A stretch of DNA of 32,041 bases from Alphaproteobacteria bacterium. GTDB lineage: Bacteria > Pseudomonadota > Alphaproteobacteria > Rs-D84. The stretch covers positions 1-32,041 of the forward strand of contig JAGCDW010000027.1 of assembly GCA_017650945.1 (NCBI GenBank). Reading direction: 5' to 3'. How positions within the stretch are numbered: the first letter of the stretch is position 1; each line of letters opens with the position of its first letter. The notes below the pieces were generated by a model. That model searched no databases and was not told the origin of the DNA. It worked only from the letters and a program-made list of their open reading frames with translations. Positions 11,125 through 32,041 of the stretch are shown here, piece by piece. Made by a program: the position numbers and the translations under genes.

Positions 11125-13730
11125 TATGTATCATCACTATCCGTTTCTGGCTTTATCTCAGGCACACCCATATCATTTATGATTGTGCAATATCCCCCAG
11201 TACCACAACAATTACGCCATGGGATATATGTACGATAGCCGTCTTCACACACACATGTTCCTCTTTCCGGATCGTATGTTGACTCCCCAGAACATGGACG
11301 GCAACTTAGTTCATCCGGGCTTGGTAAATATGGACTATGGGTATTGGAATTATCACACAGGCATGCGCCACCCAAAACATTACCGTTATTATTTTGGGCG
11401 GGATAAGAATGAGCCGGGCATTTGCGACATCTGCCTTTAAACCAGTGATAATTGTCGTCGCATGCACAATGACCCCAAAATTCAACAGGTTCCCCAGTTT
11501 GAATTTCATGTGAATTGTCTGGGCATGCCGCGGCTTCGGAACAAACCCCAGTGGACAGATATGTTCCGCCATTGTCACACGCCGGCAAACATGCGCCGTT
11601 AAAGGTTACAAAGCCTTCGCTACATTTACACATTGTGTTCACATATCCACCATAGTCGTTATTTGGCGATATGGCGTGATGCGACATTGTGTATATTGAA
11701 TTATCCGGGCATAGTAATGATTGATAGAATATTTCAGAAATGCTTTCTATACATGTATTTTGGTCTGATGATGTTTCTCTCTTTGGGCATCTGGTGGCAT
11801 CCGCCGAAAACACTGCGTATCCGCATGTAAGTGCGACATTACGGCATGCGCCACGCATAATGTTATACACACTGGACGATGCGGCCGTTGCCGACCAAGA
11901 ATTTATCTGTGAAACTTGGTTATTATAGCACGACGCAATATCATTCAAACACGTCGATGCATAGTCCGAAACAATCTGATATTGTGCGGCCTTGATATTT
12001 ACCATTGCGCGTTGGATATAGTTCACAACGATATCGTTATAGGGTTTATATGTCCCGCGGTCATCATAAGTATATGCGCGACATTTATCCAAAACCGGCC
12101 GGCAAAGCCCTTCGGCAGTCGCATCTTTTTGCGTTCCGATTTTGGTCAGCAAATATTTCATCACGCAACGTCCATCGTTTGAATTATCGGCACATTCGCC
12201 ATCACTTATCGTGGTGTTATATGCCTGACCCAAAGTGGTACTATTGATTGTTGCGTTACTGTATCCTGACATAAATTTTTGGATATTGTTTATATTCATC
12301 CCCAAAACTACATCGCCGTTTTCGTTGATATACTTCTTTGTCGGGTCAAGACATTTTGTATAGTCTTCGCCGCACACCATATCGTCTTTCATACAGGTTT
12401 CCAGCGCGCCGATACAGCCAATCGCATCGTAAGTATTCTGGTTTTGCAACACTGCGAGTCTCGCTTTTTGCAGCATACGTGTTGCACTGCGCACATTCGA
12501 CACCAATGTTTCGTTCATCTTGGTTAAGCCTTGCTCGTACGCGATGCAATCTTTATCAATCGCCAAATCATAGTTTCCTGTGATTTGCTCGGCCGTTGCG
12601 CCAACATCTTTGCATTGCTTTATTACGGTTTCACAGCGCCGCTTTGCGGCCTTGTAAAGTTCACCCCCACGCAGGTTTGAAAAACTGTTGTTCGAACCGG
12701 ACAAGAAATCAAGGCTAAACATATCCGATAAATCTTCGGACGAAAAATCTAAATCTATATCCAACAATCCATACGAATCAACGGCGTACGATGAACTGGA
12801 CGTAGTTTTCGGGTCCTTTATCATGCGTTCGATTTGCGACAACAAGTTCCGATTTTCCGTCGTATCAACAACACCAGTCATTGCTTCTTCGGCCTCGGTT
12901 GCGGACATAATCGCGGTAATTTCATCGGCCGAAAGTCCGACATAGCGAATATTTTGCGCGATTTCATTTAATTTCGTGTTGGCTTCTTTGACGGCATTTT
13001 CAACCTCTACATACTTGGCAAGATTCGCCGAACAAGAACAGCGTTTTTGATTTGTGTCAATCACTGCACAGAATTGGTCCATGCAATCGTTATATTGTTC
13101 TTGGCAAGATTTATTCAACGCAGACTTTTGTTCCAGTTGTTCTTTGGCCTCTGCGATGGATGCAGAGTCTAATTTCTCATCGCTGCGCGTCTGTCGTAAT
13201 GTTGCAATACGCGGGCTAAGGTTGCTTATTTCCGAAGATATGTTTGAACCGGTCTGCGCGCCAGATTCTAATATCGCACGACCACCAACCTCCGCTGTGG
13301 ACGGGCGCAGAGTCAATCCCATGCGTCGCACGGCTGGGTTAGCGTTTATGCTTGCGGCTTCGGTGCGCTGGGAACGGCCAGTATTACGAACGGCGGCTTC
13401 CAAGTTGCTGCGTGTGGAATCTTGCGGTGTTTGCGAACGGGTTGTTGAAACTGCGCGACCCGCAGAACGCGTTGTTGTTTGAACTTCGCGTGTTGCATCG
13501 GTTGGAATTGTACGAACGATACTGCGTGTAACCGCGCCACGGTCTGTCTGTTCAGTCGTTGTCCGCGTTGCGTTTCGTACTGGCGCGACAGACCTTTCGT
13601 CAGTTGCGGATATGTCGTCGCCACCCATTGTTGTATTTGTTCCAGGAATAACACGTGAAGGCACCGCCGCCACGCAAACCGTGGCCGGCGCATACAGTGC
13701 AATTAAAAATCCAAGTGTTAAACCCCTCAT
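11124..13730 (-). CDS. Large secreted Cys-rich hypothetical protein with C-terminal EGF/TNFR-like Cys repeats
   Basis: Signal peptide, R/T/S-rich N-terminus, CxxxYxxCMDxFC...RCxC motif, and C-terminal CPxNS/CxC repeats. Start is the ATG at 13730 or a codon just upstream. Confidence 0.85.
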   Translation of the reverse strand: MRGLTLGFLIALYAPATVCVAAVPSRVIPGTNTTMGGDDISATDERSVAPVRNATRTTTEQTDRGAVTRSIVRTIPTDATREVQTTTRSAGRAVSTTRSQTPQDSTRSNLEAAVRNTGRSQRTEAASINANPAVRRMGLTLRPSTAEVGGRAILESGAQTGSNISSEISNLSPRIATLRQTRSDEKLDSASIAEAKEQLEQKSALNKSCQEQYNDCMDQFCAVIDTNQKRCSCSANLAKYVEVENAVKEANTKLNEIAQNIRYVGLSADEITAIMSATEAEEAMTGVVDTTENRNLLSQIERMIKDPKTTSSSSYAVDSYGLLDIDLDFSSEDLSDMFSLDFLSGSNNSFSNLRGGELYKAAKRRCETVIKQCKDVGATAEQITGNYDLAIDKDCIAYEQGLTKMNETLVSNVRSATRMLQKARLAVLQNQNTYDAIGCIGALETCMKDDMVCGEDYTKCLDPTKKYINENGDVVLGMNINNIQKFMSGYSNATINSTTLGQAYNTTISDGECADNSNDGRCVMKYLLTKIGTQKDATAEGLCRPVLDKCRAYTYDDRGTYKPYNDIVVNYIQRAMVNIKAAQYQIVSDYASTCLNDIASCYNNQVSQINSWSATAASSSVYNIMRGACRNVALTCGYAVFSADATRCPKRETSSDQNTCIESISEIFYQSLLCPDNSIYTMSHHAISPNNDYGGYVNTMCKCSEGFVTFNGACLPACDNGGTYLSTGVCSEAAACPDNSHEIQTGEPVEFWGHCACDDNYHWFKGRCRKCPAHSYPAQNNNGNVLGGACLCDNSNTHSPYLPSPDELSCRPCSGESTYDPERGTCVCEDGYRTYIPWRNCCGTGGYCTIINDMGVPEIKPETDSDDT

Positions 13731-19511: not shown

Positions 19512-19586
19512 GCGGGCATAGTACAAGGGCTAGTACGCAAGCCTTCCAAGCTTGATATGCGGGTTCGAGTCCCGCTGCCCGCACCA
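19512..19586 (+). tRNA. tRNA-Gly(TCC)
   Basis: Acceptor stem GCGGGCA/TGCCCGC, anticodon arm CAAGC-CTTCCAA-GCTTG, TTCGAGT T-loop and encoded CCA. Confidence 0.96.
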
Positions 19587-19679: not shown

Positions 19680-19766
19680 GGGCGTGCGCCGGAGTTGGAG
19701 AGCCGGGGCAGACTGTAAATCTGTTGGCTTAAGCCTGAGGTGGTTCGAATCCACCCACTCCCACCA
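19680..19766 (+). tRNA. tRNA-Tyr(GTA), integration target
   Basis: Anticodon arm GCAGA-CTGTAAA-TCTGT, long variable arm, GGTGG-TTCGAAT-CCACC and CCA. One acceptor-stem mismatch (C4:U69). Confidence 0.93.
19750..19766 (+). repeat. attL core TCCACCCACTCCCACCA
   Basis: 3' end of tRNA-Tyr, identical to 31943-31959. Confidence 0.9.
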
Positions 19767-19778
19767 GTAAATTTACTT

Positions 19779-19812
19779 AGAAAACCAGGCATTTGCGCTG
19801 GTTTTTCTTTTT
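19779..19812 (+). terminator. Element-supplied terminator after tRNA-Tyr
   Basis: AGAAAACCAG-GCATTTGCG-CTGGTTTTTCTTTTT. Confidence 0.65.
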
Positions 19813-19899
19813 GTTTTGCAAATTTCACAAAATTTGAAAACCTTAGAAATCCAACACTTTTTTGCACAGACACTTTCATAAAACCAAAGGATTTTGATT

Positions 19900-21405
19900 A
19901 TGTTTAAAAAGTGTATGGCAAAGTGTTATGCAGGTCCCGACAAAAATTTATATTTGCGCGGAAAAATTTTCTACTATATGATTGAATTACCCAGAGAAAA
20001 TGGAAAAAGGCGGTATTACATCAAATCTCTGCACACAGACAATTATTACGAAGCTCGCGAAAAGGTGAAAGATATGGCAAACAATGTAGATAAAACCCAA
20101 ATAAATAAAACATTTGCTAGATTACGGTTGTTGTTAAGACAATTGACATTTGAACAAAATTCTCGTCCAATCGACTTGAAAACCATGTGTTCCAGCAACT
20201 CTGCAACTACAAAAGTTTATGGTGATATCAATGTGGTAAATGAATTGCTTAAAATCCATGACACATTAAACGAAATAAAAGCCGCAATGTTGACACCCGA
20301 ACAAAAACAAAATTTAAATTTGTTGAATCAAATAGCACCTAAATTAGAAATCTTGGTTGATAATACATTGAATCCGATTACCAGTGTCAAAACAAACGAA
20401 AAATATACTATCGGTGATGTGATAGATAGCATGTTAAAAAAAGCAAAAAATTCACCTGAAGTAAATCTAAGAAAACGGCAATTACTTGAAAAAATGATTG
20501 GTTGGGTTGATTTAAAAACAACAGATAAATACTCAAAATTTTATACGGCGGATGTTATACAAAATATAAATGAAAGGATTGGAAATTTGAACGTCTCTGG
20601 TAGTGTAAAATGTAATTATACACGAGAAATGACAAACTTAATCAAGTTTGCAAATATCTTAGATGCAGATATGTATAAAACCAATTTAATCGAATTGATA
20701 TCTGATTTCAAAAAAACTAAGAACAGCGAACGAAAACCACATTGGCCATTTACAGAATCCGAATTAAAACAGATTTTCTCCACCAAAAATGATTATTTTA
20801 AATCAAGACCAGATGTATTTTGGCATGCACTTATCGGGCTTTTTGTTGGCGCAAGATGTAATGCCGCAGCAACTTTACAATACGGCGATATAATAAACGA
20901 AAACGGAATAGATTGTATAAATTTTCAAAACAACGATAAAACCAAACATTTAAAAAACGATGCAAGTATAAGAATAGTTCCTATTCCAAAACAATTATTA
21001 GATATTGGTTTTGTTGATTGGGTAAACAGACAAAAGCAAAAACTGAATGCAACAGATAAAGCTCATATATTTCCGAAAGCTATAACAAAAAGTGGCGATT
21101 ATGAAGAAAAGTATTCAAGTCGCGGATTTATTAAATACATCAAAGATATCGGTATTACAGCGGCAAATCCGAATAAACGATTGGATTTCCATTCGTTGAG
21201 AAAAAATGCAAATAAACGATATGAAAAACTAGGTGTTCCTGGAACAATTATCAATGATATTATAGGTTGGGAAGGTAGAGACACAAGAGAAAAAGATTAT
21301 TCACAAAATGAATTGGAAGAGTTAAAACCATACACAGACAAAATGAATTACGATTTTCTAAATGATGAATTTGCATATTGGAAAAAGGTAATGAAGGATT
21401 TGTAA
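19900..21405 (+). CDS. Tyrosine recombinase / integrase with an N-terminal DUF6538-like arm-binding domain
   Basis: Catalytic residues: R in VGARCN, K in LKNDAS.R.VPI, FHSLR, IIGW and a distal Y (EKDYS). N-terminal LYLRGKIFYY...KSLHT. Confidence 0.92.
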   Translation: MFKKCMAKCYAGPDKNLYLRGKIFYYMIELPRENGKRRYYIKSLHTDNYYEAREKVKDMANNVDKTQINKTFARLRLLLRQLTFEQNSRPIDLKTMCSSNSATTKVYGDINVVNELLKIHDTLNEIKAAMLTPEQKQNLNLLNQIAPKLEILVDNTLNPITSVKTNEKYTIGDVIDSMLKKAKNSPEVNLRKRQLLEKMIGWVDLKTTDKYSKFYTADVIQNINERIGNLNVSGSVKCNYTREMTNLIKFANILDADMYKTNLIELISDFKKTKNSERKPHWPFTESELKQIFSTKNDYFKSRPDVFWHALIGLFVGARCNAAATLQYGDIINENGIDCINFQNNDKTKHLKNDASIRIVPIPKQLLDIGFVDWVNRQKQKLNATDKAHIFPKAITKSGDYEEKYSSRGFIKYIKDIGITAANPNKRLDFHSLRKNANKRYEKLGVPGTIINDIIGWEGRDTREKDYSQNELEELKPYTDKMNYDFLNDEFAYWKKVMKDL

Positions 21406-21707
21406 TGGAAAAAGATTTTGAACAGTGGTTGAAAGATAATTTTTATTCTTGGGCCACAGCACGAATTTACACGGGGCGGATAAGAAAAGAATATAGACGC
21501 AAGGGATATTCCGATTTGGAATCTTTTGTTCGTGGTGAAATTAATGGGAAAACGGAAATACATGTTCCAAAAAAAGCGATTTCTGCATTCAGAAAATTTG
21601 CTGATTTTTTGGCAGAACATATAAAGGTATATGTAGGGGCAGACATACCATTTTTCAAAAGATTTAAGAAAACATTCGAAGTAAAAGAAGATGTTGGCGG
21701 AATTTAA
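21405..21707 (+). CDS. Small hypothetical protein translationally coupled to the integrase
   Basis: TAATG overlap with the integrase stop. Sequence begins MEKDFEQWLK..ATARIY. Confidence 0.7.
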   Translation: MEKDFEQWLKDNFYSWATARIYTGRIRKEYRRKGYSDLESFVRGEINGKTEIHVPKKAISAFRKFADFLAEHIKVYVGADIPFFKRFKKTFEVKEDVGGI

Positions 21708-21852
21708 AAACGGTTTTTTATTTATAAACCCTGCTACCCCATCCGACAGTATCGGCAACCGGTCCCGCAAATGCCACCAACACTAACCCACCGCACCCCA
21801 TACACCACCGTCCATCTGGTTATAAAATCGCTAACTGCAAATTGAAAAAAAT

Positions 21853-22488
21853 TCAAAGGCCTTTACGCGTGGGACGATTTTTTTCGGTTAGTATTTTCAG
21901 TGTGTCGTTTGTTCCTGTTGTATATCTGCATAGTCTCGATAACGGTTCAACTATCGGTTTCAAATAATTGTATTTCACAGATGGTGATTTATTATCAACC
22001 GTTTTCATATTATCCAAAGTTTCAACCATAAATTGCAACATATCTTGGGCTTTTTTAATACCGCGTTCAGTCAATTTTAATATTTTACGATTTTTCTTGG
22101 TTTTATCTGGAATGATTTCAAACAATATATTTGCTTCGTCGATTTTACCTGTGTTTTTGATATGGCCACCCTTGGTTATTCGTTCAGAACTGTATTTGGC
22201 AACAATGTTTCCGATGGTGCCTATCGGAATACCATATAATTTAGCGATATCGGCCTGACTTATATCGGAATAAAAAAGAACCGCCAATAAAATTTTTAAT
22301 AGATTCATTTCGTTGGTTGTTTTTTCTACATGTCTATGAATACGAAATACCAGCGTATAAATATCGGCCAATAATCTAAATTGGACTTCTTCGCCATATT
22401 CTAATTTATTTTCTTCTTCAATTTGTCTCTGATTTAAATAATCTTGCCAATCTTTGCTGGCCAACCAGCATTTTCCATTCGAAAGCAT
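21853..22488 (-). CDS. MarR-like winged-helix DNA-binding protein
   Basis: ISQADIAKLYGIPIGTIGNIV HTH and a D..KNRKILKLTERG wing. GGGGG RBS before the ATG at 22488. Confidence 0.7.
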   Translation of the reverse strand: MLSNGKCWLASKDWQDYLNQRQIEEENKLEYGEEVQFRLLADIYTLVFRIHRHVEKTTNEMNLLKILLAVLFYSDISQADIAKLYGIPIGTIGNIVAKYSSERITKGGHIKNTGKIDEANILFEIIPDKTKKNRKILKLTERGIKKAQDMLQFMVETLDNMKTVDNKSPSVKYNYLKPIVEPLSRLCRYTTGTNDTLKILTEKNRPTRKGL

Positions 22489-22709
22489 GCGTTTACCCCC
22501 TTTAATATTCCACAATAGAATATTAAAACACCCCTAAAATTAATGCAAATAAAAAATATTTACAAAAAAATTAAAAAATTTTTGCTTTATAACCAATTGT
22601 TTTTAGCGTTTTTTATTTTTTGAATTCACGAATTTTAAATTTTTTTTACGAAAACCCCTTTCAGCAACAGTTCTGAATAAATGTATCGAAAAAAATAAAG
22701 GAGTTTTAA

Positions 22710-24467
22710 ATGATACATTTAAATAGTGGGGTGGAATCTGCCTTGGATAAAATGATTCAAAATCGTAATGCGTTTTTAAATGGTGAGCAACCGTCTAAAA
22801 ATGAAGTTGAAATTGTTCCAGAAATTGTGTGTCCTGCGCTGGTGGATGAAAAATTGCCGAATTTTTTAAATGTGGATGCATCTGTTGCTGTTCCGGATAA
22901 TCCAATTGATTTAAATAATTATATGGCTGTTCAAGAAGGAGCGGGAGAATTAGGAAAAACCTTGTTGAAAAAATTAAAAATACAGGGGAAATGGTATATT
23001 CATGTTTTGCAAAAGACACAAAAACATGCTGAAAATACTTTGGAAGCGGGGTTAAAATTGGGGCAATATCTGAAACAATTACCAACAAAGCAAGGGAAAA
23101 GAACGGATTTGAAACTTCCCGACACTGATGTTGATAAGTGTAAAAATGAAATTTTGGCTGAATTGGGTATAACAGAAAGAGTTTCTTGGGATTTGCAGAA
23201 ATTAACGCCGGAAGCCGTCGAAAAAGCGAAAAAACAAGCGATTAAAGACGGTAAAATTGTAAATCGTGCTATGGCTTTGAAAATTGTTGGTAAACAACAT
23301 TACAAAAGCAACAATGTTCCAGAAGATTTTAAAGGTGAATTTGGAAAAAGGCCTGATTTTAATAGTTTCATCGGTAAACAAGTATTATATTATACACAAT
23401 GTTTCGCCTCCGTGGGTGTTGGCGAAGAAAAATTGGAACAAATAGGTTTGTTTCCGTCAGTTGTTAATGAACTTGAAGAAATTCGGTGTCGTTGGTATCA
23501 GGAACGCCATAAAAATTCTGACATTATCCAAGGTTCCATTGATGACCCAGTGATTTTTGAAAAGATTGTCGCGGCTCATTTAAAACATAAAAACAAGTTG
23601 ATATTGGCCAGCCCAGTTTGTAGAGATTTTTCAATTGCCGGCAAGCGTGATTTTGACAATCCACGCGCCAGATTGATTTTCCCTGTTCTTGAATTGGCGC
23701 GACGGGTTAATGATGTGAACGAATACATATTAATTGAAAATGTTCCTGGATTCTTAACCGCTTCACCAGAAAATTGGCCAGAAGTGAACGGAAAAGAAAA
23801 AATCAATCTCGGCACTTATGTGAAACGGGAACTTGAAAAATTGGGTTATATCGTCAATATCGCTGTTGTTTATGGTTGTGATTATAATACAGCCCAGAAA
23901 AGAAAACGCGCGTTTATTCTTGCTTCTAAAAAAGGTAAATGGCTGTTCCCAGAAAAAGACGAACGGTGGAAAACTTTGATGGAAGTTATCGGGCATTTAC
24001 CATCATTAAACAAGCCTGGTGATACATCTAAATATAAATGGCATGAATTTCCAAAAAGTATGGACGAAGAGACAATCAAAGTTTTGCGCCATACACCAAC
24101 TGGTAGTTCCGCACAAGATAATGAAGAAGAATTTCAACCACGAAAAAAAGACGGTTCAAGAAGCGGGGCTAAATTTCAATCCTATAACATGCGAAATTGT
24201 TGGGGATTACCCGCAGCAACTGTAATGCAACATAATGATAATCCAGGTGGACACAGAACAATACATCCTGGACGACCATTATCAGATGGAACATGGACCG
24301 ACCCACGAACATTCAGTATTCTTGAAATATTGTTAATTACTGGGTTGGATGCAAATTATTTTATTCCAGATTGGGCGGATGAAGAATTAATCCGAAATGT
24401 TCTTGGTGATTGTTTGCTACCAAATGTGAATCTTGCATTGTGTTCAATGATTCCTGGGCGTGAATAA
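22710..24467 (+). CDS. DNA (cytosine-5) methyltransferase with a ~215-aa N-terminal extension; orphan
   Basis: Motif I variant FASVGVGE, NELEE, motif IV variant SPVC, ENVPG, QKRKR and motif X variant LGDCL. AAGGAG RBS. Confidence 0.88.
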   Translation: MIHLNSGVESALDKMIQNRNAFLNGEQPSKNEVEIVPEIVCPALVDEKLPNFLNVDASVAVPDNPIDLNNYMAVQEGAGELGKTLLKKLKIQGKWYIHVLQKTQKHAENTLEAGLKLGQYLKQLPTKQGKRTDLKLPDTDVDKCKNEILAELGITERVSWDLQKLTPEAVEKAKKQAIKDGKIVNRAMALKIVGKQHYKSNNVPEDFKGEFGKRPDFNSFIGKQVLYYTQCFASVGVGEEKLEQIGLFPSVVNELEEIRCRWYQERHKNSDIIQGSIDDPVIFEKIVAAHLKHKNKLILASPVCRDFSIAGKRDFDNPRARLIFPVLELARRVNDVNEYILIENVPGFLTASPENWPEVNGKEKINLGTYVKRELEKLGYIVNIAVVYGCDYNTAQKRKRAFILASKKGKWLFPEKDERWKTLMEVIGHLPSLNKPGDTSKYKWHEFPKSMDEETIKVLRHTPTGSSAQDNEEEFQPRKKDGSRSGAKFQSYNMRNCWGLPAATVMQHNDNPGGHRTIHPGRPLSDGTWTDPRTFSILEILLITGLDANYFIPDWADEELIRNVLGDCLLPNVNLALCSMIPGRE

Positions 24468-24488
24468 TCTCTGGTAATTACAACAATA

Positions 24489-24517
24489 AATCCCGGCTTT
24501 GATACCGGGATTTTTTT
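24489..24517 (+). terminator. Terminator after the methyltransferase
   Basis: AAATCCCGG-CTTTGATA-CCGGGATTTTTTT. Confidence 0.8.
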
Positions 24518-24904
24518 CAAAAAAATAATTCCAACTATGCAACCACCACAAAAAAAGCGGTTCTATAAAAATGTATTTAGTGTGTTGTGGACTTTCTGTA
24601 ATTGTATCAGAAGATAAACATAGACTCAGCATATCGTACATTTTTGTTGGTTGTATCAAATTGGTTTATCAAAGGCGCCTGATTAAATGCGTTGTAGATA
24701 AGTTATTACGATTTATGATTTATGTATGTATTTATTAAATAACCACAACGCAATAACCAATACCGATACAACAAAAGATACCTGAATATAAAGGTTCTAA
24801 TTAATGATAAATCGTGAACAAAGAACAAACCAATTTTTTCCACATCCACAACCACTAGGTTTAAGTATTTGTTCACGATTATTTTTTTATAAAAGGTGGT
24901 TTTA

Positions 24905-25420
24905 ATGACAGATATTTATCAATACGAATATAAAATTTACACAGATGAAGATATGACAGAATTATTAGAAAAATCCGTTATCGATTGGTTATTTGAATTT
25001 GACCCAAACTATTTTATATCAATACAATTTCCAACAACACAGCGAAGTTATAATCTGGAAAAATCAGTTTATCGGTTAAAAGCGGTTATGAAAATCTTTG
25101 AAAAAACATTAAACCCACGACATTGGTATAAGAAACATTTACCGTTTATTGCTTTTGCTGAAAATACATCTGGTATGTGGCATTTCCATTTATTTTTAAA
25201 AAACGATAAATACCCCGAAGAAAAAATATTATCTGGTATGGACATAACGGCAAAGAAATTCGCTTTTTCAGAAGATGTAATTGATATTCAAAAGATAACC
25301 AGAACACCAGAAAAAGCATTTAAATACGGCGGCAAAGAATTAACAGCCGATTCCACAGGTAGATTTGAATCATTTCGGATAATATTGTCTGATGATATGT
25401 TTAACCTTCCACAAAAATAA
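24905..25420 (+). CDS. Small HUH-endonuclease (rolling-circle Rep-like) protein
   Basis: Motifs in Rep order: I FISIQF, II E....WHFHLFL, III YGGK. AAGGTGG RBS. Confidence 0.6.
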   Translation: MTDIYQYEYKIYTDEDMTELLEKSVIDWLFEFDPNYFISIQFPTTQRSYNLEKSVYRLKAVMKIFEKTLNPRHWYKKHLPFIAFAENTSGMWHFHLFLKNDKYPEEKILSGMDITAKKFAFSEDVIDIQKITRTPEKAFKYGGKELTADSTGRFESFRIILSDDMFNLPQK

Positions 25421-25565
25421 CCCATACAATCATATAAACCAGGTGTAGTCGCCCCAATCAGCAACCAGATATAAGTTATAAACCAAATCAAATTGGGGCA
25501 ACCACGCGTCAAATATGGAACAAATGTAAAAAATAACCTGCTAATTCACATCAGCAGGTTTTTAT

Positions 25566-26066
25566 CTATTCGTCGTCGTCAGAATACGGTTCACTGGATG
25601 TTATTAAAACTTGGCCTGTATTTTTATCTTTTACCCTTACAACAGTCCAATCTGAATCTGATGTATCGAATTCAACAGTTATATCTTTATCAGTTTCAAA
25701 TACTGCCATACCATGATATTCTTTAAATCCGTTTGAGTTAGCGTCTATATGTTTTTGTATCGTATCGGTTAATTCACATACACATACCATACCTGAATCT
25801 GCAAAAAAATCGTGTTTTAATACATTTACACCCCAGATTTCATTAGTCCAATCACCATATCCAGTTGAACATGCTTTTGCTTTATAATCGCCACTATATT
25901 TTTGTAATGCAGCGGTTGTTTCATTATCAAATAATTCCCGTTGCATTACATAATCACGATTTTCCATTGCTTTTTTATACGCTGCAGAGTCAAATATTTC
26001 ACAACATTTACTCCAATCGTCATCAGGTATTAAATAACATGGGTCGGTTATAATATATTTACGCAT
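25566..26066 (-). CDS. Hypothetical protein (ITDPCY...TGYGD...DSG family, mobile-element associated)
   Basis: AAGG RBS. Conserved-looking DPCY, T.YGD and ADSGMV motifs. Last gene of a four-gene minus-strand operon. Confidence 0.75.
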   Translation of the reverse strand: MRKYIITDPCYLIPDDDWSKCCEIFDSAAYKKAMENRDYVMQRELFDNETTAALQKYSGDYKAKACSTGYGDWTNEIWGVNVLKHDFFADSGMVCVCELTDTIQKHIDANSNGFKEYHGMAVFETDKDITVEFDTSDSDWTVVRVKDKNTGQVLITSSEPYSDDDE

Positions 26067-26080
26067 ATCGTTTTACCTTT

Positions 26081-26224
26081 TTAGTATGTAATAATCCGGC
26101 CAATTAAAGCGACATTATTATCTTCTAGGTTTCGTAATGCTGCTTTTGCTTGGTCATAGTTAAAGTAAATTTCCGGTAAAAGAATTCCGTTTGCTTCTAT
26201 TTTGAAATATGTGCAATTTGGCAT
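26081..26224 (-). CDS. 47-aa hypothetical protein missed by the ORF track
   Basis: AAGGA RBS, MPNCTYFKIEANGILLPEIYFNYDQAKAALRNLEDNNVALIGRIITY*. It fills the gap in the operon. Confidence 0.65.
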   Translation of the reverse strand: MPNCTYFKIEANGILLPEIYFNYDQAKAALRNLEDNNVALIGRIITY

Positions 26225-26240
26225 GTTAAATCCTTTTTGT

Positions 26241-26573
26241 TTAATATTCATCTGCACGCATAATGGTTAAAACCCGAATAGTGATATTTTCGTCCGCTGG
26301 ATTATCTGAGCCGGCATCCATTGTTTCGTTATAGTAGTCAATTTTCCAAAAATAGTTTTTTCCGTTATGCTCGATACGCGAAAAATCTCTTTCTCCGTAT
26401 GGATTATTATCTTCATTAAAGTCATTAAATTTTTGAACTTTATCTAACAGACGAGCTTGTTCGAGATACGGTAAAGAACTCACACCCACAGATATGAATA
26501 CCTGATTTTTACCGGGTGTGAATAAGTTCTTTCTCAGTTTATCGTTTAATTCTGCAATTTTATTCGTATTCAT
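26241..26573 (-). CDS. DUF3768 domain protein
   Basis: IAELNDKLR, F..DNNPYGERDF, FWKIDYY and RVLTIMRADEY signature. Confidence 0.88.
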   Translation of the reverse strand: MNTNKIAELNDKLRKNLFTPGKNQVFISVGVSSLPYLEQARLLDKVQKFNDFNEDNNPYGERDFSRIEHNGKNYFWKIDYYNETMDAGSDNPADENITIRVLTIMRADEY

Positions 26574-26848
26574 TATGCAACCTGTGATTCTAACATCATT
26601 TTTTTCAGTTGGACAAGCGAACTTCTAATGGACCTGGACATACCGGCACCCAGTATTTGTTTCGGCCCCCCGCGCTGATAAAGCGGACATATATCAGATA
26701 TGTTTTCTGCTAACTTTTCAATCGTTAGATTCTCGATTTTTGCTACTCGCTTCAAAGCTCGGCAATAATCATAACAAGTTGAATTTCTGCCGTTTACAAT
26801 TACAGCAAACCCATTTTTAACCAAGTATTTACGATATTCATTTAACAT
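26573..26848 (-). CDS. Small hypothetical protein
   Basis: AAGGAG RBS. Stop overlaps the DUF3768 start (TAATG). Confidence 0.75.
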   Translation of the reverse strand: MLNEYRKYLVKNGFAVIVNGRNSTCYDYCRALKRVAKIENLTIEKLAENISDICPLYQRGGPKQILGAGMSRSIRSSLVQLKKMMLESQVA

Positions 26849-27184
26849 TTTTATACTCCTTTATTCTGTTAAACTATATAAATTATACGGTGAATCAAAT
26901 GATTTTCGAACTAAAAAACTTCCCGCAAGAGCCAAAAAACGCCAGTTTTTAGCCGTTTTTGAGCAATTTTGAGCTTTCGGAGCAAAACAGAGTCGTATTT
27001 GCTATTAAATTGATATAGTTAAAGATAAACTGTTTAAATTATATAGTTTATGCGTTTTTTATGCAGAAAAGGTAAAACTTATCCACATTAAAGTAGTAAA
27101 GTTCCATAAAACAAACACAGGCAAGCCAAATTTACCCCCAGAACAAAGAAACAATTGATATAACAGAACAATATTATATAAAAA

Positions 27185-28537
27185 TTATCTTCGTTTTACA
27201 TCAATTACTTGTCCTGTAATGTTTGTTATTAATGTCTTTATAGAAAAATCTGCAACCCGTTCTGGTTGGCATAGTGTTTCTGCTGGTTCTTCTCCAAAAG
27301 CATTAAATCTCATTGGTGTCGCCGTTCTTTCTGGGTTTATTGCGTTAACTTTTACTCCGTCTTCATATAATTCTTCAGCCAATGCTTGAACTAGATTTAC
27401 AATAGCAGCTTTTGCAGAAGAATATGTTGAATACAATGCTCGACCCCTTGTATATGATGAAGAAGTAAACAACAATAAACCGCCACGACTTTTTTTAAGA
27501 TAAGGAATAGAGGCGTGTGCTACATTTATATTGCCTACATAATTAATATTTATATCTTGTATAATATCTTGGATTTTTCTGTCTATCAATTTTCCTATAT
27601 TCAATACACCAGCAGAATTTATTATGTAATCTATTTTACCATGTTTTGTATAAATTTTATTCAATTCGCTCGTTATATTAGCATAATTTGTTATGTCGCA
27701 TCCGTTTGAACGAGATAAAGCATAAGTTCTGGCGCCATATTGTTTTAATTTTATATCTATATGCTGTCCAATTCCACTATTTCCACCAAATATAACTATA
27801 ATTTTATCTTTTAAATTTTCTATTTTTATATTTTCATCATAAATGTCTGTATGTTTTAATTGGAAAAGTTTATCTGCTATATATATATCAACAGGATATG
27901 TTATTTTTATGTTATTTATATCACCTGGAATCACATAAACCTGTGCAAGACTATACTTTACGACTATACCACAGTCATCTGTAAAGTTTGTATCGTCTTT
28001 TCTTGCAAGTTGATGAGCTTTCTTAATTACGCCTAACTTGAAGCATTGAGGGGTTTGGCCATATTGTAAATTTGCACGATTGGGTATGTTTTTTACTATT
28101 TCATTATCTGTTTCTATAATCGTATCTATGGCCGGAATGGCAACATCAACGGCATCATATTTATCTAGAGCTTTTACGCAATCATTTATAATTCTATGAG
28201 TTATAAATGGCCTAGCTGCATCATGTATTATAACTTTTGTATCATCGTCATCTTGTATTGATTCAACAGCAATTTCTGAACTTTGTTGGCGGGTATCACC
28301 ACCATTTAATAATTTACAAACTTTTTTATAGTTATTTTTGATTAGAATATTTTCACATAAATATCTAAATTTTGGAGTTATTACTATAATAATTTCATCT
28401 ATATTATCATTAGCCTCAAACACATCAATAGTGTGTTCAAGTATGGTTTTACCAGCCAACTTATTGAATTGCTTTGGCAAATCATTACCATAGCGATTTC
28501 CTGTTCCTGATGCCAAAATAACTCCATAATTCTTCAT
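27185..28537 (-). CDS. Bifunctional ribitol-5-phosphate cytidylyltransferase / ribulose-5-phosphate reductase (Bcs1/Acs1 type; CDP-ribitol synthase)
   Basis: N-terminal IspD/TarI fold (ILASGTGNR..PKQF, IHDAARP, QTPQ, KITYP) fused to an SDR (GGNSGIG, SSSYTRGR, YSSAK, NPERT.TPMR), the architecture of Haemophilus Bcs1. Confidence 0.88.
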   Translation of the reverse strand: MKNYGVILASGTGNRYGNDLPKQFNKLAGKTILEHTIDVFEANDNIDEIIIVITPKFRYLCENILIKNNYKKVCKLLNGGDTRQQSSEIAVESIQDDDDTKVIIHDAARPFITHRIINDCVKALDKYDAVDVAIPAIDTIIETDNEIVKNIPNRANLQYGQTPQCFKLGVIKKAHQLARKDDTNFTDDCGIVVKYSLAQVYVIPGDINNIKITYPVDIYIADKLFQLKHTDIYDENIKIENLKDKIIVIFGGNSGIGQHIDIKLKQYGARTYALSRSNGCDITNYANITSELNKIYTKHGKIDYIINSAGVLNIGKLIDRKIQDIIQDININYVGNINVAHASIPYLKKSRGGLLLFTSSSYTRGRALYSTYSSAKAAIVNLVQALAEELYEDGVKVNAINPERTATPMRFNAFGEEPAETLCQPERVADFSIKTLITNITGQVIDVKRR

Positions 28538-28546
28538 AAAAAACAC

Positions 28547-29830
28547 CTATAATTCTTTTATTAATTTTACTAGTTGTTCTGATGCATTTCCTGTATCATA
28601 AGACCCCATTTGGTGCAGGAAATCCTTTGTCGCTTTTGCAAATGCTTCTACATTTAAATTCTGTATATTATGTATAAGCTGATTATTATCTTGGGAAATT
28701 GGTATAGGTGTATCTTCCATTTCAATATATGAACCCCTTGCACTAAAATAATATTGCTTATCAGGGGCATATATAAAGGCTGGCCGTCCAGTAATTAAAA
28801 AATCAAATATAGAAGAGCTATAATCTGTTATTAAAATATCTGCTACTGCAAGCAATTCTTGCATGTCTGGATATAATGTTGCGTCTTTTAACCAATCATA
28901 TTTTGGTAAAATATTTTGTTCCATAATCATATTAGGATGTAATCTAGACAAAATAACCCAAGAATTTGAATAACGTTTATCCAGTGTATCTTTTAATTTT
29001 TTATAATCTATGTCGTATACACTTTGGTTATGATTATCCCTGAACGTTGGTGCATACAATAAAATTTTTACACCAGCAGGAATTTTGAAATATTCGTGTA
29101 TTTTATTTTCAATTTTATCAGAATGCTTAAAAAGAATATCATTGCGCGGATTTCCCTCCCTGAAATATTTACCAGAATACCAAAATGTTTTTTTGAATAT
29201 TGTATTTTCTGACCATAGAGCACCAGATGATAGGAAATCAATATCTTTGGAATCTTGTTTGGCTAATTGTATATAACTATCTGGTAAATTAGGATAATCT
29301 GCTTCTATTTTTTTAAATCCCATATTACCGTGCCAAGTATGAATATATTTTTGACCTTTTCTTTTGTGCAATATATTTTGTCTAACATTTGATATAAATA
29401 TATGGCAAGTTGTCAGGTAATACAACGCCTTTAAACTAAAACAATTTACCAACTTGATATTTTCTGGAAATTCTTCTGGAAATTTTAACTTTTTTTTATC
29501 GTAAAGCCAGATTAAATCAAACTGGTTATCCTTTAACATTTCCAAAGCTATATATTTTGGATTGTCTCCGAAACCTTGACCAGCCATATTCCAAAAACAT
29601 ACACGAAATTTTTTTATAGGGAACAAATGAAAAATTTTAGAACAACATTTGAATACAAACTCTCTCTTTGGTGTTATAGGAATAAAGAAAAACAGAAAAA
29701 TTCTTTGATATTTTATCTTTATCAAAGGTATGTAATACAAAACAAACACAAAGTATCTGTCGTCTTTGTTTACTGCTCTTACAAATAGTTTACAAACTAA
29801 TTTTGTTATCTTTTTCATCGTTATTCGCAT
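28547..29830 (-). CDS. TagF/TarF-family CDP-glycerol/ribitol phosphotransferase
   Basis: TWHG, GNPRND, LYAPTFRD, RLHP and LITDYSS motifs. Confidence 0.92.
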   Translation of the reverse strand: MRITMKKITKLVCKLFVRAVNKDDRYFVFVLYYIPLIKIKYQRIFLFFFIPITPKREFVFKCCSKIFHLFPIKKFRVCFWNMAGQGFGDNPKYIALEMLKDNQFDLIWLYDKKKLKFPEEFPENIKLVNCFSLKALYYLTTCHIFISNVRQNILHKRKGQKYIHTWHGNMGFKKIEADYPNLPDSYIQLAKQDSKDIDFLSSGALWSENTIFKKTFWYSGKYFREGNPRNDILFKHSDKIENKIHEYFKIPAGVKILLYAPTFRDNHNQSVYDIDYKKLKDTLDKRYSNSWVILSRLHPNMIMEQNILPKYDWLKDATLYPDMQELLAVADILITDYSSSIFDFLITGRPAFIYAPDKQYYFSARGSYIEMEDTPIPISQDNNQLIHNIQNLNVEAFAKATKDFLHQMGSYDTGNASEQLVKLIKEL

Positions 29831-29836
29831 TTATAA

Positions 29837-30724
29837 TTATCTAATGACACCAATTTTTATAAAACCAAACAAATACATTTTGTTGTTTTCTAGTAAAATA
29901 AGGGGGATACGCCCAAACAGATAATACTTTGACCTGCACATGTTATATGTTTTTATTTTAATAATAGGTATTCCAAATATCCGCACCCACCTAAACAATG
30001 TTGTGTATTTGTCTATCAAATTTTCATCACCAAATAAAAATCTTGCTACATCGTATTGAATCTTTTTTGTTGTTTCTGCTTGAATATCGGCTTTTTCCTT
30101 AGATACACTTGCTTTATGCACTCTGTATAAATATAAAATTTCTTGTAAATTATGAATTTTAGCATATCTTGCAAACCTAGAATAAAATTCCATATCTTCC
30201 GCTGCAAAGTAATTAGAATCAAATCTTAAATGATATTGTTCTATAATTTCACGACGTGCTACGAATACTGTTGTTTTGCAACCGAATAAGAAATCGCCAA
30301 CACGAACTTCTGGTGGATTCATATACGAAAAATTGTCATCTTGAAAAGCTTGCAATCCACATCCAACCATTCCATAATCGGGATGCTTTTCTAAAAAATC
30401 AACCTGTTTTGCTAATCTTGTTGGTTTAGATATATCATCACTATCCATTTTTGCGATATATTCGCATTGTGCTACATCAAGGCATTCATTTAAACTAGCT
30501 ATAAAACCTTTATTTGTTTTATTGTCTATAAATTTTATTCTTTTATCTTTCTTTGCATATTCCCTGATTATTGACGATGTATTATCTGTTGAACCATCAT
30601 TTAATATTATAAATTCAAAATCCGTAAATGTTTGTTTTAAGATACTTTCAATAGCTTCACCAACATATTTTTCAACGTTATATGCTGGCATTATAACTGA
30701 AACTTTTGGCTTTTTTTGTGGCAT
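29837..30724 (-). CDS. Glycosyltransferase family 2
   Basis: VSVIMPAYN, NDGSTD, MDSDD and EDM motifs. Confidence 0.93.
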   Translation of the reverse strand: MPQKKPKVSVIMPAYNVEKYVGEAIESILKQTFTDFEFIILNDGSTDNTSSIIREYAKKDKRIKFIDNKTNKGFIASLNECLDVAQCEYIAKMDSDDISKPTRLAKQVDFLEKHPDYGMVGCGLQAFQDDNFSYMNPPEVRVGDFLFGCKTTVFVARREIIEQYHLRFDSNYFAAEDMEFYSRFARYAKIHNLQEILYLYRVHKASVSKEKADIQAETTKKIQYDVARFLFGDENLIDKYTTLFRWVRIFGIPIIKIKTYNMCRSKYYLFGRIPLILLENNKMYLFGFIKIGVIR

Positions 30725-30933
30725 TAGATGTCCTTTTTGTATAAGAAACTTTGTTGTTTAGAATCGAATTCTGTATCTGTGCTGAAAAGCGGGATAAAAC
30801 CCAATAACCAATACATTTTATGGATACATAAGGTGTGATTATTATCAAAATGTGTTGTTTTTCTTATTATGAACAAAGGAAAAAAACCTAAAAATGACAC
30901 AATCCCTATTGCTTTGTTTTCATTGTTTTTCAT
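30724..30933 (-). CDS. 69-aa protein made of two LGF(F/I)PLF repeats; first gene of the glycan operon
   Basis: GAGG RBS. Stop overlaps the GT2 start (TAATG). Confidence 0.6.
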   Translation of the reverse strand: MKNNENKAIGIVSFLGFFPLFIIRKTTHFDNNHTLCIHKMYWLLGFIPLFSTDTEFDSKQQSFLYKKDI

Positions 30934-31164
30934 TGTATAACCTCACTTTTAATTCGGATATTCAATATATTAAACAAACCAACGATTGTTTCATAAATAC
31001 GAAGTGGCAAATTTCAACTTAGCATAAATACTTTGTGTATACTGGATTTCTAAGGTTTTTTCACTAGTAATGAATTCTTGATAATAAGTTTATAAATGAA
31101 AAATTTATATTGATTTTATCGTTCTATTAAATAGGCATAAATTATCAACCAAAGGATTAGAAAA

Positions 31165-31764
31165 ATGGCAGTTTTTGGATATATTAGAGTTAGTAGTGCA
31201 AAGCAAAATTGCGACCATCAACATTATGAAATTCAACAATTTGCAGAACATAACAACATCAATGTAGATAAGTGGATTGAAGAAACAATCTCTTCACGCA
31301 AACCTTTAAATAAAAGAAAATTGGGGCAGTTGTTAAACGAATTACAAGACGGTGATATTTTAATTGCTGCTGAAATATCGCGTCTTGGGCGTTCAATGAT
31401 GGAAGTAATGCGAATACTTGAAACTTGTTTGAATAAAAATTGTGAAGTATGGACGATAAAGGAACATTATAGGTTAGGAAACGATATTCAATCCAAAGTC
31501 ATGGCATTTGCATTTGGGCTTTCAGCAGAGATAGAAAGAAATTTAATATCACAACGAACAAAAGCGTCTTTGGAAAGTATAAAAGCCAGTGGTAAAAAGA
31601 TAGGCCGCCCCTTTGCTGCTAGTTCAAAAAAATTGAAATTATCCAAGAATACAAAGAAAGTCAAAAAATTTCTGGAAATGGGATTAACACATTATCGAAT
31701 TGGCAAGATATTGGGCGTAAAACCAGCAACTGTATCACACTTTGTAAATCGCATGGGCTGGTAA
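31165..31764 (+). CDS. Serine recombinase (resolvase/invertase), Mpi-like subfamily
   Basis: GYIRVSS..Q, EISRLGRS, YRLGNDIQSKVMAFAFGLSAEIERNLISQRTK, GRP and a C-terminal HTH. Confidence 0.92.
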   Translation: MAVFGYIRVSSAKQNCDHQHYEIQQFAEHNNINVDKWIEETISSRKPLNKRKLGQLLNELQDGDILIAAEISRLGRSMMEVMRILETCLNKNCEVWTIKEHYRLGNDIQSKVMAFAFGLSAEIERNLISQRTKASLESIKASGKKIGRPFAASSKKLKLSKNTKKVKKFLEMGLTHYRIGKILGVKPATVSHFVNRMGW

Positions 31765-31942
31765 AAAATCGTTTACATTTGACAGAAATCGCGTTATTTT
31801 GTAAAAGTGCTGTGCAAGTGTTAGGCATTTCTGGTAAAAACTGGTTAAATTTGGGTGGAATCGGCGTTAAAAGTGCTTGTTTTCTCTCAAAAATTGGTAT
31901 GTCTGAAACCATCTCATTCCTACCAATGGTGGGAGTCAGATT

Positions 31943-31959
31943 TCCACCCACTCCCACCA
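31943..31959 (+). repeat. attR core TCCACCCACTCCCACCA
   Basis: Identical to the tRNA-Tyr 3' end (19750-19766). Confidence 0.9.
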
Positions 31960-31997
31960 AAATAGAAAATGACCCGTTTGGGTCATTTTTTATTTTG
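31958..31997 (+). terminator. Terminator-like hairpin immediately after attR
   Basis: CAAAATAGAAAATGACCC-GTTT-GGGTCATTTTTTATTTTG. Confidence 0.75.
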
Positions 31998-32041
31998 CAA
32001 TGTGGGGTGGGTGGATGCGCAAGAGCGCCATGGCACGACAG

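Follow-up and report, generated by a model that had tools for sequence, protein, structure and literature searches.

A tRNA-Tyr-associated integrative element with a predicted miniature HUH protein and an inverton beside surface-glycan genes in a gut alphaproteobacterium of the Candidatus Enterousia group

The contig JAGCDW010000027.1 of assembly GCA_017650945.1 (32,041 nucleotides, analysed whole and called here the window; contig handle C21) comes from a gut alphaproteobacterium of the Candidatus Enterousia group with a genome of about 0.88 Mb, and at the 3' end of its tRNA-Tyr gene it carries a 12.2-kb element bounded by two exact copies of that tRNA end (Table 1). We think it probable that this element belongs, in intact form, to a lineage-restricted family of 4.5-15-kb elements that lack capsid and type IV secretion system (T4SS) genes, insert at the 3' ends of tRNA genes in the Candidatus Enterousia group (genomes of about 0.9 Mb), and operate as follows. 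The integrase, perhaps steered by a 91-aa core-binding-domain protein, would excise a circle; a small HUH protein would nick a conserved, repeat-rich region upstream of its own gene, and this nick would start rolling-circle replication or single-strand transfer with the aid of host helicases; new cells would be reached via a route that the element does not encode; and a serine invertase would flip a segment bearing only a -35 box, with the full promoter of a ribitol-phosphate glycan operon formed only once the segment is turned relative to the assembly. Because the full promoter would form in one orientation only, the surface modification would be phase-variable.

Candidatus Enterousia belongs to the alphaproteobacterial order Rs-D84, whose members, according to PMC12306168, have genomes below 1 Mb, occur commonly in the guts of livestock, are believed to rely on other cells, and have been proposed to be obligate symbionts or parasites. 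A search of the available literature on Enterousia and Rs-D84 found no description of mobile elements in this lineage, and the one genomics paper that it returned makes no mention of mobile DNA, phages or integrases. The initial annotation of this DNA could not assign the backbone to a named class of elements, and we likewise found no relative in plasmid, phage and viral-contig collections and no published match. We take the family, with its backbone of an integrase and a predicted miniature HUH nickase, to be previously undescribed.

Insertion site and boundaries

The sequence TCCACCCACTCCCACCA, the last 17 bases of the tRNA-Tyr gene, occurs in exactly two copies in the window, one at each end of the element; with up to two mismatches allowed, this core found no match in shuffled sequence (0 of 100 shuffles). 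GC content is 0.28-0.39 between the two copies as against 0.42-0.50 to the left of them, and the island as a whole has 31% GC inside a 45% GC contig. Scanning the 17 open reading frames (ORFs) of the window against Pfam, PHROGs and NCBIfam gave no match to capsid, terminase, T4SS, coupling-protein or primase families. The repeats, the GC step and these scans agree with the initial annotation, which had described a discrete integrative element with intact 17-bp att repeats and without transfer or capsid genes of its own, and the gene order that it listed was recovered from the ORFs and family matches.

That the element inserted at tRNA-Tyr with a 17-bp duplication is evident from an empty site, such as the annotation had suggested looking for, in relative L068 (genome G161), in which tRNA-Tyr abuts the sequence of the window's right flank. 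The match to that flank is complete over the first 70 nt and 88% over 339 nt; the flank itself is short because the contig stops 82 bp past attR. In the tRNA-Gly/tRNA-Tyr loci of 29 relatives, viewed over at most 1.5 kb (less than 500 nt in five of them), no integrase follows tRNA-Tyr. The sole match of the integrase among species-representative genomes is at 71% identity in a metagenome-assembled genome of a Candidatus Enterousia sp., at the same tRNA-Gly/tRNA-Tyr locus. In four other relatives a different sequence directly follows the tRNA; in the window's genome that sequence sits about 300 bp further on, behind an att remnant matching at 15 of 17 positions, and thus the tRNA-Tyr site has been used before.

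The last 63 nt of the window (31979-32041) overlap the start of the reverse strand of contig C9 of the same assembly (locus L054, far end). Reverse-strand C9 begins with 101 nt of unrelated sequence and a degenerate att copy (CCCCCACCA), followed by the same flank with two base changes, and its units 1-153, 1176-1259 and 2193-2345 repeat one another. The arrangement resembles the ends of old elements piled up in one place, or else a mixture of strains, and either would account for the contig break at the end of the window. In relative G139 (contig C4, 41218-42374; locus L078) a 67% identical invertase gene adjoins the tRNA-Gly/tRNA-Tyr pair, on the side opposite to that at which the window's element is inserted.

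A family of elements with a shared backbone

The gene for the HUH protein is present in 57 of 201 host-family genomes and in 6 of 18 genera, at up to four places per genome, and among the matches listed a stop codon interrupts 4 of 76 such places. When 21 of these neighbourhoods were compared by tblastn with the proteins of the window, the integrase recurred in 13, the 91-aa gene in 16, the DUF3768 gene in 13, the 58-aa gene in 13 and a methylase in 9. A full-length invertase (77-84% identical) is present in five (L033, L041, L045, L048 and L052), always beyond the cargo. The backbone shared by these loci consists of an inward-reading integrase, a variable slot, the HUH gene convergent with an operon of the 91-aa gene and usually DUF3768, and a variable cargo, often with the invertase at the far end. 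The co-occurrence that the initial annotation had left to be checked is therefore found elsewhere, as is the variation of the cargo.

The elements adjoin genes for tRNA-Tyr, Thr, Gly(GCC), Gly(CCC), Lys, Gln and Val. Eight, including that of the window, have exact 17-24-bp tRNA-end repeats at both ends (Tyr, Thr, Gly, Lys and Gln), which gives sizes of 4.46, 7.1, 9.0, 9.3, 10.2, 10.2, 12.2 and 15.3 kb. The smallest, L038 at tRNA-Tyr, defines a minimal core, since it holds only the integrase, the HUH gene, a homologue of the 91-aa gene and two further ORFs without a family. The integrases cluster in part by target, Thr with Thr and the Gly(GCC) ones together; the two types found at tRNA-Tyr are not sisters. 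The slot between integrase and HUH gene is filled by methylases or, in three elements, by a DUF927/DUF5906 primase-helicase-like gene instead.

The cargo of the relatives includes restriction-modification systems of NgoFVII and DpnII type, Imm_superinfect, a PLD nuclease, an AAA_21 and RloB pair and, among surface functions, BspA-type LRR proteins, YadA-anchor adhesins and Slam with its neighbour. Some loci have a complete set of defence genes as cargo: a DpnII system with two methylases (L039, 8011-10662), a C5 methylase with an NgoFVII-type nuclease (L036, 3832-5901) and the AAA_21 and RloB pair (L045, 8705-10652).

The HUH protein and a candidate origin

The initial annotation had called an HUH protein from the sequence, and we find the call supported by motifs and by predicted structure. 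The protein contains FISIQFP, WHFHLFL and Y144-x-x-K147, the three classical Rep motifs, and in an alignment of 32 members P46, W77, E89, H96, H98, Y144, K147 and F169 are invariant. Its AlphaFold 2 model (pLDDT 90) matched the Rep protein ORF119 of SIRV1 best in Foldseek (E 9.4e-4), followed by AAV Rep, circovirus Rep and pMV158 RepB. A search independent of Foldseek gave Z 8.3 to the same SIRV1 protein (2x3g; rmsd 3.4 over 109 residues), then MVM NS1 (Z 6.5), a Helitron transposase (6.0), AAV5 Rep (5.8), RepB (5.7) and a REP-associated transposase (5.6); these values are middling, yet the set of matches is consistent. The nearest Pfam family, PF23343 (REP_ORF2-G2P), scores 19.6 bits with the window's protein (E 0.0011) and 24.0 bits with that of L001 (E 4.8e-5), both below the cut-off of 27.8, and a precomputed PF23343 domain is present on 7 of 24 homologues. 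As the family score stays below its cut-off, the assignment rests on motifs and fold, which point to a Rep-class protein with HUH and YxxK motifs.

The protein family has few members: of 1.84 billion representative proteins, 275 match at E <=0.001, 153 at 1e-10 and 83 at 1e-30, and the homologues are unnamed metagenome proteins. No match to the HUH protein was found among PLSDB plasmids or INPHARED phages, and neither its profile nor, searched separately, the blocks of the region upstream of its gene were found in 2.9 million IMG/VR viral contigs. The profile gave nothing meaningful against the sequences of solved structures. Compared with the Rep-class enzymes that it resembles in fold (Z 8.3-5.7 for SIRV1 ORF119, parvoviral and AAV Rep/NS1 and pMV158 RepB), in the HUH motif and in the single tyrosine of YxxK, the window's protein differs in having no helicase or oligomerisation domain and no sequence similarity to solved chains, and in being integrated in the chromosome together with an integrase.

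Upstream of the HUH gene, the blocks 24521-24532, 24560-24570, 24586-24596 and 24613-24625 are the same in all seven elements compared within the closest subfamily, and the region contains repeated CCACAAC-like words in both orientations, which makes it a candidate origin of replication or nicking. Two helicases of UvrD type are encoded by the host. The word GTTCTA(T/A)(T/A)AA(A/T) occurs at 24560-24570 and at about 24795-24806, both upstream of the HUH gene, and again at 31120-31131 in the fixed right box before the invertase gene; it may be a promoter or regulator site shared across the element.

A predicted free-standing core-binding domain in the core

The 91-aa protein, kept even in the 4.5-kb minimal element, is by its AlphaFold 2 model (pLDDT 92) predicted to be a free-standing core-binding (SAM-like) domain of a tyrosine recombinase. 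Each of its four closest structural neighbours is the N-terminal core-binding domain of such an enzyme: IntI residues 5-85 (Z 8.0, rmsd 2.6 over 76 residues), Brujita Int (Z 7.5), an archaeal Xer (Z 7.2) and XerD (Z 7.2), followed by XerA, the N-domain of a Haloarcula integrase and the core-binding domain of lambda Int. These matches came from a wider structure search, Foldseek having returned nothing at E <=0.001; a language-model protein atlas gave Phage_int_SAM, which we take as a lead. The sequences of solved structures gave nothing meaningful for this protein, and no likeness between it and the 109-aa product encoded next to the integrase was detected. A core-binding domain that has no catalytic domain and is retained in the minimal element suggests a helper or a brake of recombination, and we therefore put the protein forward as a candidate DNA-binding directionality or regulatory factor.

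The serine recombinase and its inverton

The initial annotation counted two recombinases, and this part of its description has to be revised, because the second is not another mobility enzyme but an Mpi-like invertase, which would flip a 131-bp segment bearing part of a putative promoter in front of the cargo operon. Among plasmid-borne proteins annotated as Mpi family the nearest are 46-59% identical to it, and it scores 265.7 bits with NCBIfam NF009949 (Mpi 'master DNA invertase'), below the cut-off of 272. The host assembly holds a single switch with the same boxes, and thus there is no sign of a 'master' role.

The invertible segment lies between the invertase gene and the cargo operon and is flanked by an inverted repeat with a 6-bp core, AACGAT (30981-30986) and ATCGTT (31118-31123), which was not among the repeats found in a general repeat listing around the switch. 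Aligning the upstream DNA of six full-length invertase copies brought out two fixed boxes, ACAAACCAACGAT and ATCGTTCTATTAAA, 110-132 nt apart. With nine metagenome loci, obtained by a pattern scan of metagenome contigs for both boxes, and the six genome loci, 15 switches could be compared; by their terminal words 11 are in orientation A, that of the window, and 4 in orientation B. Both orientations can also be seen in pairs of loci: L045 and L048 have left flanks that are 97.8% identical over 271 nt and match plus/minus inside the boxes (pairwise BLAST), L033 and L052 share a 91-nt plus/minus match (83.5%) between the boxes, and the window aligns plus/minus to both L033 and L048 within them.

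The sequencing runs give a second view of the same event. We aligned Logan contigs and unitigs (31-mers) of four runs to the window and disregarded joints with short sides of 20-41 nt at a likeness of 90. In runs X1 and X2 one unitig of 11,250 nt stops at 30986, a separate one of 143 nt spans 30981-31123, and a third, of 855 nt, starts at 31118. With 31-mers, a 6-bp inverted repeat predicts 24 junction words, that is, 54-nt unitigs, and branches at both ends of the inner piece, and this is what is observed: X1 has junction unitigs at 30957-31010 (depth 9.4) and 31094-31147 (depth 7.3), compared with depths of 14.3 for the inner piece, 16.1 for the flank to 30986 and 20.6 for the flank from 31118. 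As the junctions have about half the depth and the graph breaks there, about half of the X1 molecules appear to be in the other orientation. Taken together, the loci and the unitigs show that the 131-bp segment inverts.

A second small serine recombinase of the host (contig C43, about 12750-13328; L099) is 54% identical and has its own upstream inverted repeat, AAACCAAGG and CCTTGGTTT, about 100 nt apart and unlike that of the window; this is probably another inverton, outside any HUH element.

A putative split promoter and the glycan cargo

Searching 30700-31300 for consensus promoters yielded fewer sites than shuffled sequence did, and a naive whole-promoter scan of the switches was inconsistent; because of this we examined the two promoter halves separately. 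All 15 switches have, 2 nt from one end of the segment, a hexamer of TTG type (TTGATT, TTGCTT or TTGAAA). In orientation B the cargo-side hexamer at a distance of 16-17 nt matches TATAAT in at least four of six positions in 14 of the 15, and in at least five in 10, in comparison with at most three for the best hexamer on the recombinase side (15/15). The fixed hexamer on the cargo side may thus act as the -10 box of a promoter whose -35 box is on the segment. As orientation B would be ON for the cargo, the window as assembled would read OFF.

The genes that adjoin the switch always read away from it, and in all cases they are surface items: YadA-anchor adhesins in L045 and L048, a 565-aa protein with Slam in L041, and in the window the glycan operon. 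Its cytidylyltransferase has an IspD-type domain and scores 174.2 bits with NF001183 (D-ribitol-5-phosphate cytidylyltransferase), above the cut-off of 166. Judged from the family names, the products of the operon would synthesise CDP-ribitol and decorate a surface polymer with ribitol-phosphate and a sugar; the surface-glycan cargo of the initial annotation is in line with the matches of the cytidylyltransferase, the TagF-type transferase and the glycosyltransferase. In run X7 (share 0.44) the backbone is covered and about 28135-29004 and 29875-30744 are not. No trustworthy contig spans the gap, and we did not count this as a replacement of the cargo.

Replication, transfer and alternative readings

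Several observations weigh against the mechanism that we favour. The candidate origin folds as DNA no better than shuffles (z -0.10), and a nick site was not identified within it; besides the HUH gene, three relatives hold the DUF927/DUF5906 gene, and therefore the HUH protein need not be the replication initiator. In the assembled run contigs neither an attP circle nor an attB junction was seen, and no joint of 19766 to 31960, where the unitig of an empty site, at 43 nt, would have escaped the alignment. The depth of the element is equal to or below that of its flank (16 vs 22 in X1, 14.6 vs 15.7 in X2), and these samples thus show nothing that points to replication. As regards the switch, the mixed orientation in X1 is a deduction from graph breaks and half depth, inverted-junction contigs not being displayed; the window's own -10 (TAATAT, four of six, spacer 16) falls in the weakest class; no RNA run that contains the element is among the sequencing runs listed; and invertase orthologues (E <=1e-60) occur in 84 of 201 genomes, some of them without an HUH match (e.g. 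G122, G143, G165), which means that the cassette of switch and cargo is not specific to this backbone.

The unitigs contain one more signal. Those of X1 and X2 branch immediately after 19766, and in X1 the tRNA and right-flank unitigs reach depths of 34.7 and 30.2 compared with 16.1 for the element, and the branch points coincide with the two ends of the 17-bp core. Such a pattern is compatible with sites that are empty, or filled by something else, beside the occupied one; it is no proof of excision.

A possible alternative, although one that we doubt, is that of an integrative mobilizable element, in which the HUH protein would be a Rep-like relaxase acting at an upstream oriT and the strand would leave through the VirB/VirD4 T4SS of the host. 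This overlaps with our preferred reading and differs from it in the purpose of the nick. Rep-like relaxases are known from integrative mobilizable elements, the element has no transfer genes, and the host encodes VirB3 and VirB4 among housekeeping genes (YchF, SufBD-like, DnaG) on contig C8 (L055, 12231-14947) as well as a VirD4-like coupling protein (T4SS loci on C8 and at C1:13677-14330). The VirD4 family is present in 101 of 101 host-family genomes; the lineage thus has a core T4SS, a pore would always be at hand, and we can hypothesise that the element could use it. However, the fold matches are replication initiators and not relaxases, no MOB family matches, no oriT is defined, and a scattered core T4SS in a reduced genome may, by analogy with Rickettsiales, serve host interaction and not DNA transfer.

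That the element is a phage satellite (of PICI, P4 or 'PICI-like tycheposon' type), which awaits a helper phage, replicates on induction and is packaged in the helper's capsids, is in our judgement improbable. The size of 4.5-15 kb, the tRNA site and the inward integrase would fit, as would the primase-helicase-like gene next to the integrase in three relatives and Imm_superinfect in one. Yet none of the 17 ORFs of the window and 62 of the relatives was recognised as a terS, capsid, head-size-redirection or packaging gene, with the proviso that divergent small genes could escape such a search; the viral contigs contain neither HUH relatives nor the origin blocks, the phage collection contains no HUH relative, and the host assembly, which comprises 881,804 bp in 65 contigs and is 92.7% complete, has no match to an HK97-type capsid (PF05065) or to Zot.

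Nor do we give much credence to a fixed genomic island whose mobility genes are remnants, its invertase-controlled cargo being all that still matters to the host. In favour of such an island, the element and the chromosome have the same depth, degenerate att copies mark older remnants downstream, and the invertase cassette also exists without the HUH gene. Against this, all backbone ORFs are intact and the repeats exact, stop codons interrupt few of the HUH matches listed, relatives are found at seven or more different tRNAs, as many as four of them in one genome, and the absence of an adjoining integrase at tRNA-Tyr in the 29 related genomes indicates a recent gain. An integrated single-stranded-DNA phage of inovirus or plectrovirus type, or a satellite of one, to which the weak REP_ORF2-G2P matches could point, is very improbable indeed, given that no Zot/pI-type ATPase is found in element or genome, that there is no conserved coat-like gene set, that the element integrates by its own tyrosine integrase with tRNA-end repeats, and that viral collections contain no relatives.

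Features of the window and remaining genes

The integrase residues R321, K351/K354, H433, R436, W459 and Y469 are invariant across 14 integrases of the family. In L001 the integrase is 71% identical and sits at the same tRNA, and the 109-aa ORF has a 61% identical counterpart in the same position. The 220-aa ORF, a winged-helix regulator in the initial annotation, matched phrog_4151 and no Pfam family, and a DNA-binding role is possible; it has a 35% identical ORF in L033. The C5 methylase is an orphan, as the annotation had it: no nuclease partner was recognised, and PADLOC on the window gave the methylase as its sole match. Its N-terminal extension of about 230 aa (22710-23400) matches no family, and full-length relatives that include the extension are found at 39-40% identity in L045, L050 and L051.

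The minus-strand DUF3768 operon spans 26848-25566 and is convergent with the HUH gene. The 58-aa and 166-aa ORFs at its end match no family in Pfam, PHROGs, NCBIfam or PADLOC. For the DUF3768 protein the sequences of solved structures gave nothing meaningful, the protein atlas, with the protein's own family left out, gave no usable match, and the term DUF3768 was not found in the literature search. In the gap between this operon and the end of the glycan operon lies an inverted repeat of 27 nt (26870-26896 and 27024-27050; 81% complementary, 127 nt apart), which X1 and X2 unitigs cross unbroken, with no sign of inversion there. An Rfam scan of the window returned the two tRNAs and nothing else.

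Table 1. Features of the element and its flanks in the window
Feature	Position	Strand	Evidence and remarks
tRNA-Gly (TCC)	19512-19586		ARAGORN; just upstream of tRNA-Tyr
tRNA-Tyr (GTA), integration target	19680-19766	+	ARAGORN; Rfam tRNA
attL, 17-bp core	19750-19766	+	exact repeat; tRNA-Tyr 3' end
Tyrosine integrase, 503 aa	19894-21405	+	PF00589 E 2.4e-8; phrog_1 integrase; reads inward from tRNA end
109-aa ORF overlapping integrase end	21378-21707	+	ORF list; no family match
220-aa ORF, possible DNA-binding regulator	21853-22515	-	phrog_4151 'DNA binding protein' E 2.5e-4; divergent from methylase
C5 cytosine DNA methyltransferase, 585 aa	22710-24467	+	PF00145 E 1.2e-28 (aa 232-575); PADLOC MTase_II E 3.6e-61
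Conserved non-coding region, candidate replication or nick origin	24521-24895	+	upstream of HUH gene
Predicted mini HUH endonuclease, Rep class, 174 aa, without helicase domain	24896-25420	+	motifs, fold
166-aa ORF	25566-26066	-	end of DUF3768 operon; kept in 2/21 related loci
58-aa ORF	26081-26257	-	end of DUF3768 operon; kept in 13/21 related loci
DUF3768 protein, 110 aa	26241-26573	-	PF12599 E 1.2e-30; in 13/21 related loci
91-aa protein gene	26573-26848	-	first gene of DUF3768 operon
Cargo operon	30933-27185	-	four genes
Fused ribitol-5-P cytidylyltransferase and SDR reductase, 453 aa	27185-28546	-	PF01128 E 1e-51; PF00106 (adh_short) E 2.6e-30
TagF/TarF-like polyol-phosphate transferase	28547-29830	-	PF04464 E 8.3e-68
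Family-2 glycosyltransferase	29837-30724	-	PF00535 E 8e-38
69-aa small hydrophobic protein	30724-30933	-	cargo operon
-10-like hexamer TAATAT, fixed, cargo side	30967-30972	-	hexamer positions computed for 15 switches
Inverton	30974-31131	.	left site 30974-30986, segment 30987-31117, right site 31118-31131
-35-like hexamer TTGATT on segment	31110-31115	.	faces recombinase gene in assembled orientation
Small serine recombinase, 199 aa, Mpi-like DNA invertase	31165-31764	+	PF00239 E 5.6e-33; phrog_125 DNA invertase E 3.7e-42
attR, second 17-bp core copy	31943-31959	+	hairpin and T-run after it; directly follows tRNA-Tyr in relatives

Relation to known systems

In architecture and setting the element can be likened to the tycheposons of Prochlorococcus, as described in the accessible text of Hackl et al. 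(bioRxiv 10.1101/2020.12.28.424599): the host genome is streamlined, a tyrosine integrase acts at tRNA 3' ends with partial-tRNA repeats, the gene order in the window and the 21 related loci conforms, and one figure legend has a small serine recombinase among its gene labels. Unlike the tycheposons of that text, the elements reside in a gut alphaproteobacterium and hold a 174-aa HUH protein, a predicted nickase, instead of a primase, polymerase or helicase, their core has a predicted free-standing core-binding-domain protein and DUF3768, and an inverton would gate the cargo. With integrative mobilizable elements (reviewed in PMC5704250, PMC5357655 and PMC6499999) the element has in common an integration module of its own, one nickase, no mating pore, a small size and cargo, and it differs in that the predicted nickase is of Rep class without a relaxase match and that the sole T4SS at hand is the core chromosomal one.

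The closest counterpart of the switch is found in Bacteroidales, whose conjugative elements, in the accessible text of bioRxiv 10.1101/2021.04.26.441444, combine an invertase, an invertible promoter and a variable block. Here, as in that system and in Mpi of B. fragilis (NF009949), a local small serine invertase, a short invertible region and a variable surface or accessory block are joined on a mobile carrier; unlike there, the host is an alphaproteobacterium, the carrier is non-conjugative and 12 kb long, the core of the repeat is only 6 bp, and the promoter is apparently split between the segment, which has the -35 box, and the fixed DNA beside it, which has the -10 box.

Conclusions

For the gain of genes by such reduced genomes the element family offers a concrete and testable vehicle: it uses many tRNA sites, it carries restriction-modification, adhesin and glycan genes, and it has its own on/off switch. 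Its two notable features are the minimal mobility core, which is very small and suited to biochemical dissection, and the split-promoter inverton, a compact design for phase variation that could be sought elsewhere. Tentatively, and with much less assurance than we attach to the element family itself, we can join these observations into a wider reading, in which obligately partner-dependent gut alphaproteobacteria with genomes below 1 Mb would keep private minimal gene shuttles, built on a new core of an integrase, a 170-aa HUH nickase and a core-binding protein without a catalytic domain. These would move between tRNA genes and cells through the universal chromosomal T4SS or through vesicles, and would deliver self-contained, phase-variable surface cassettes with a split promoter that inversion puts together and takes apart. 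If this is true, the elements would be a gut counterpart of the marine tycheposons and a main source of surface diversity in the lineage.

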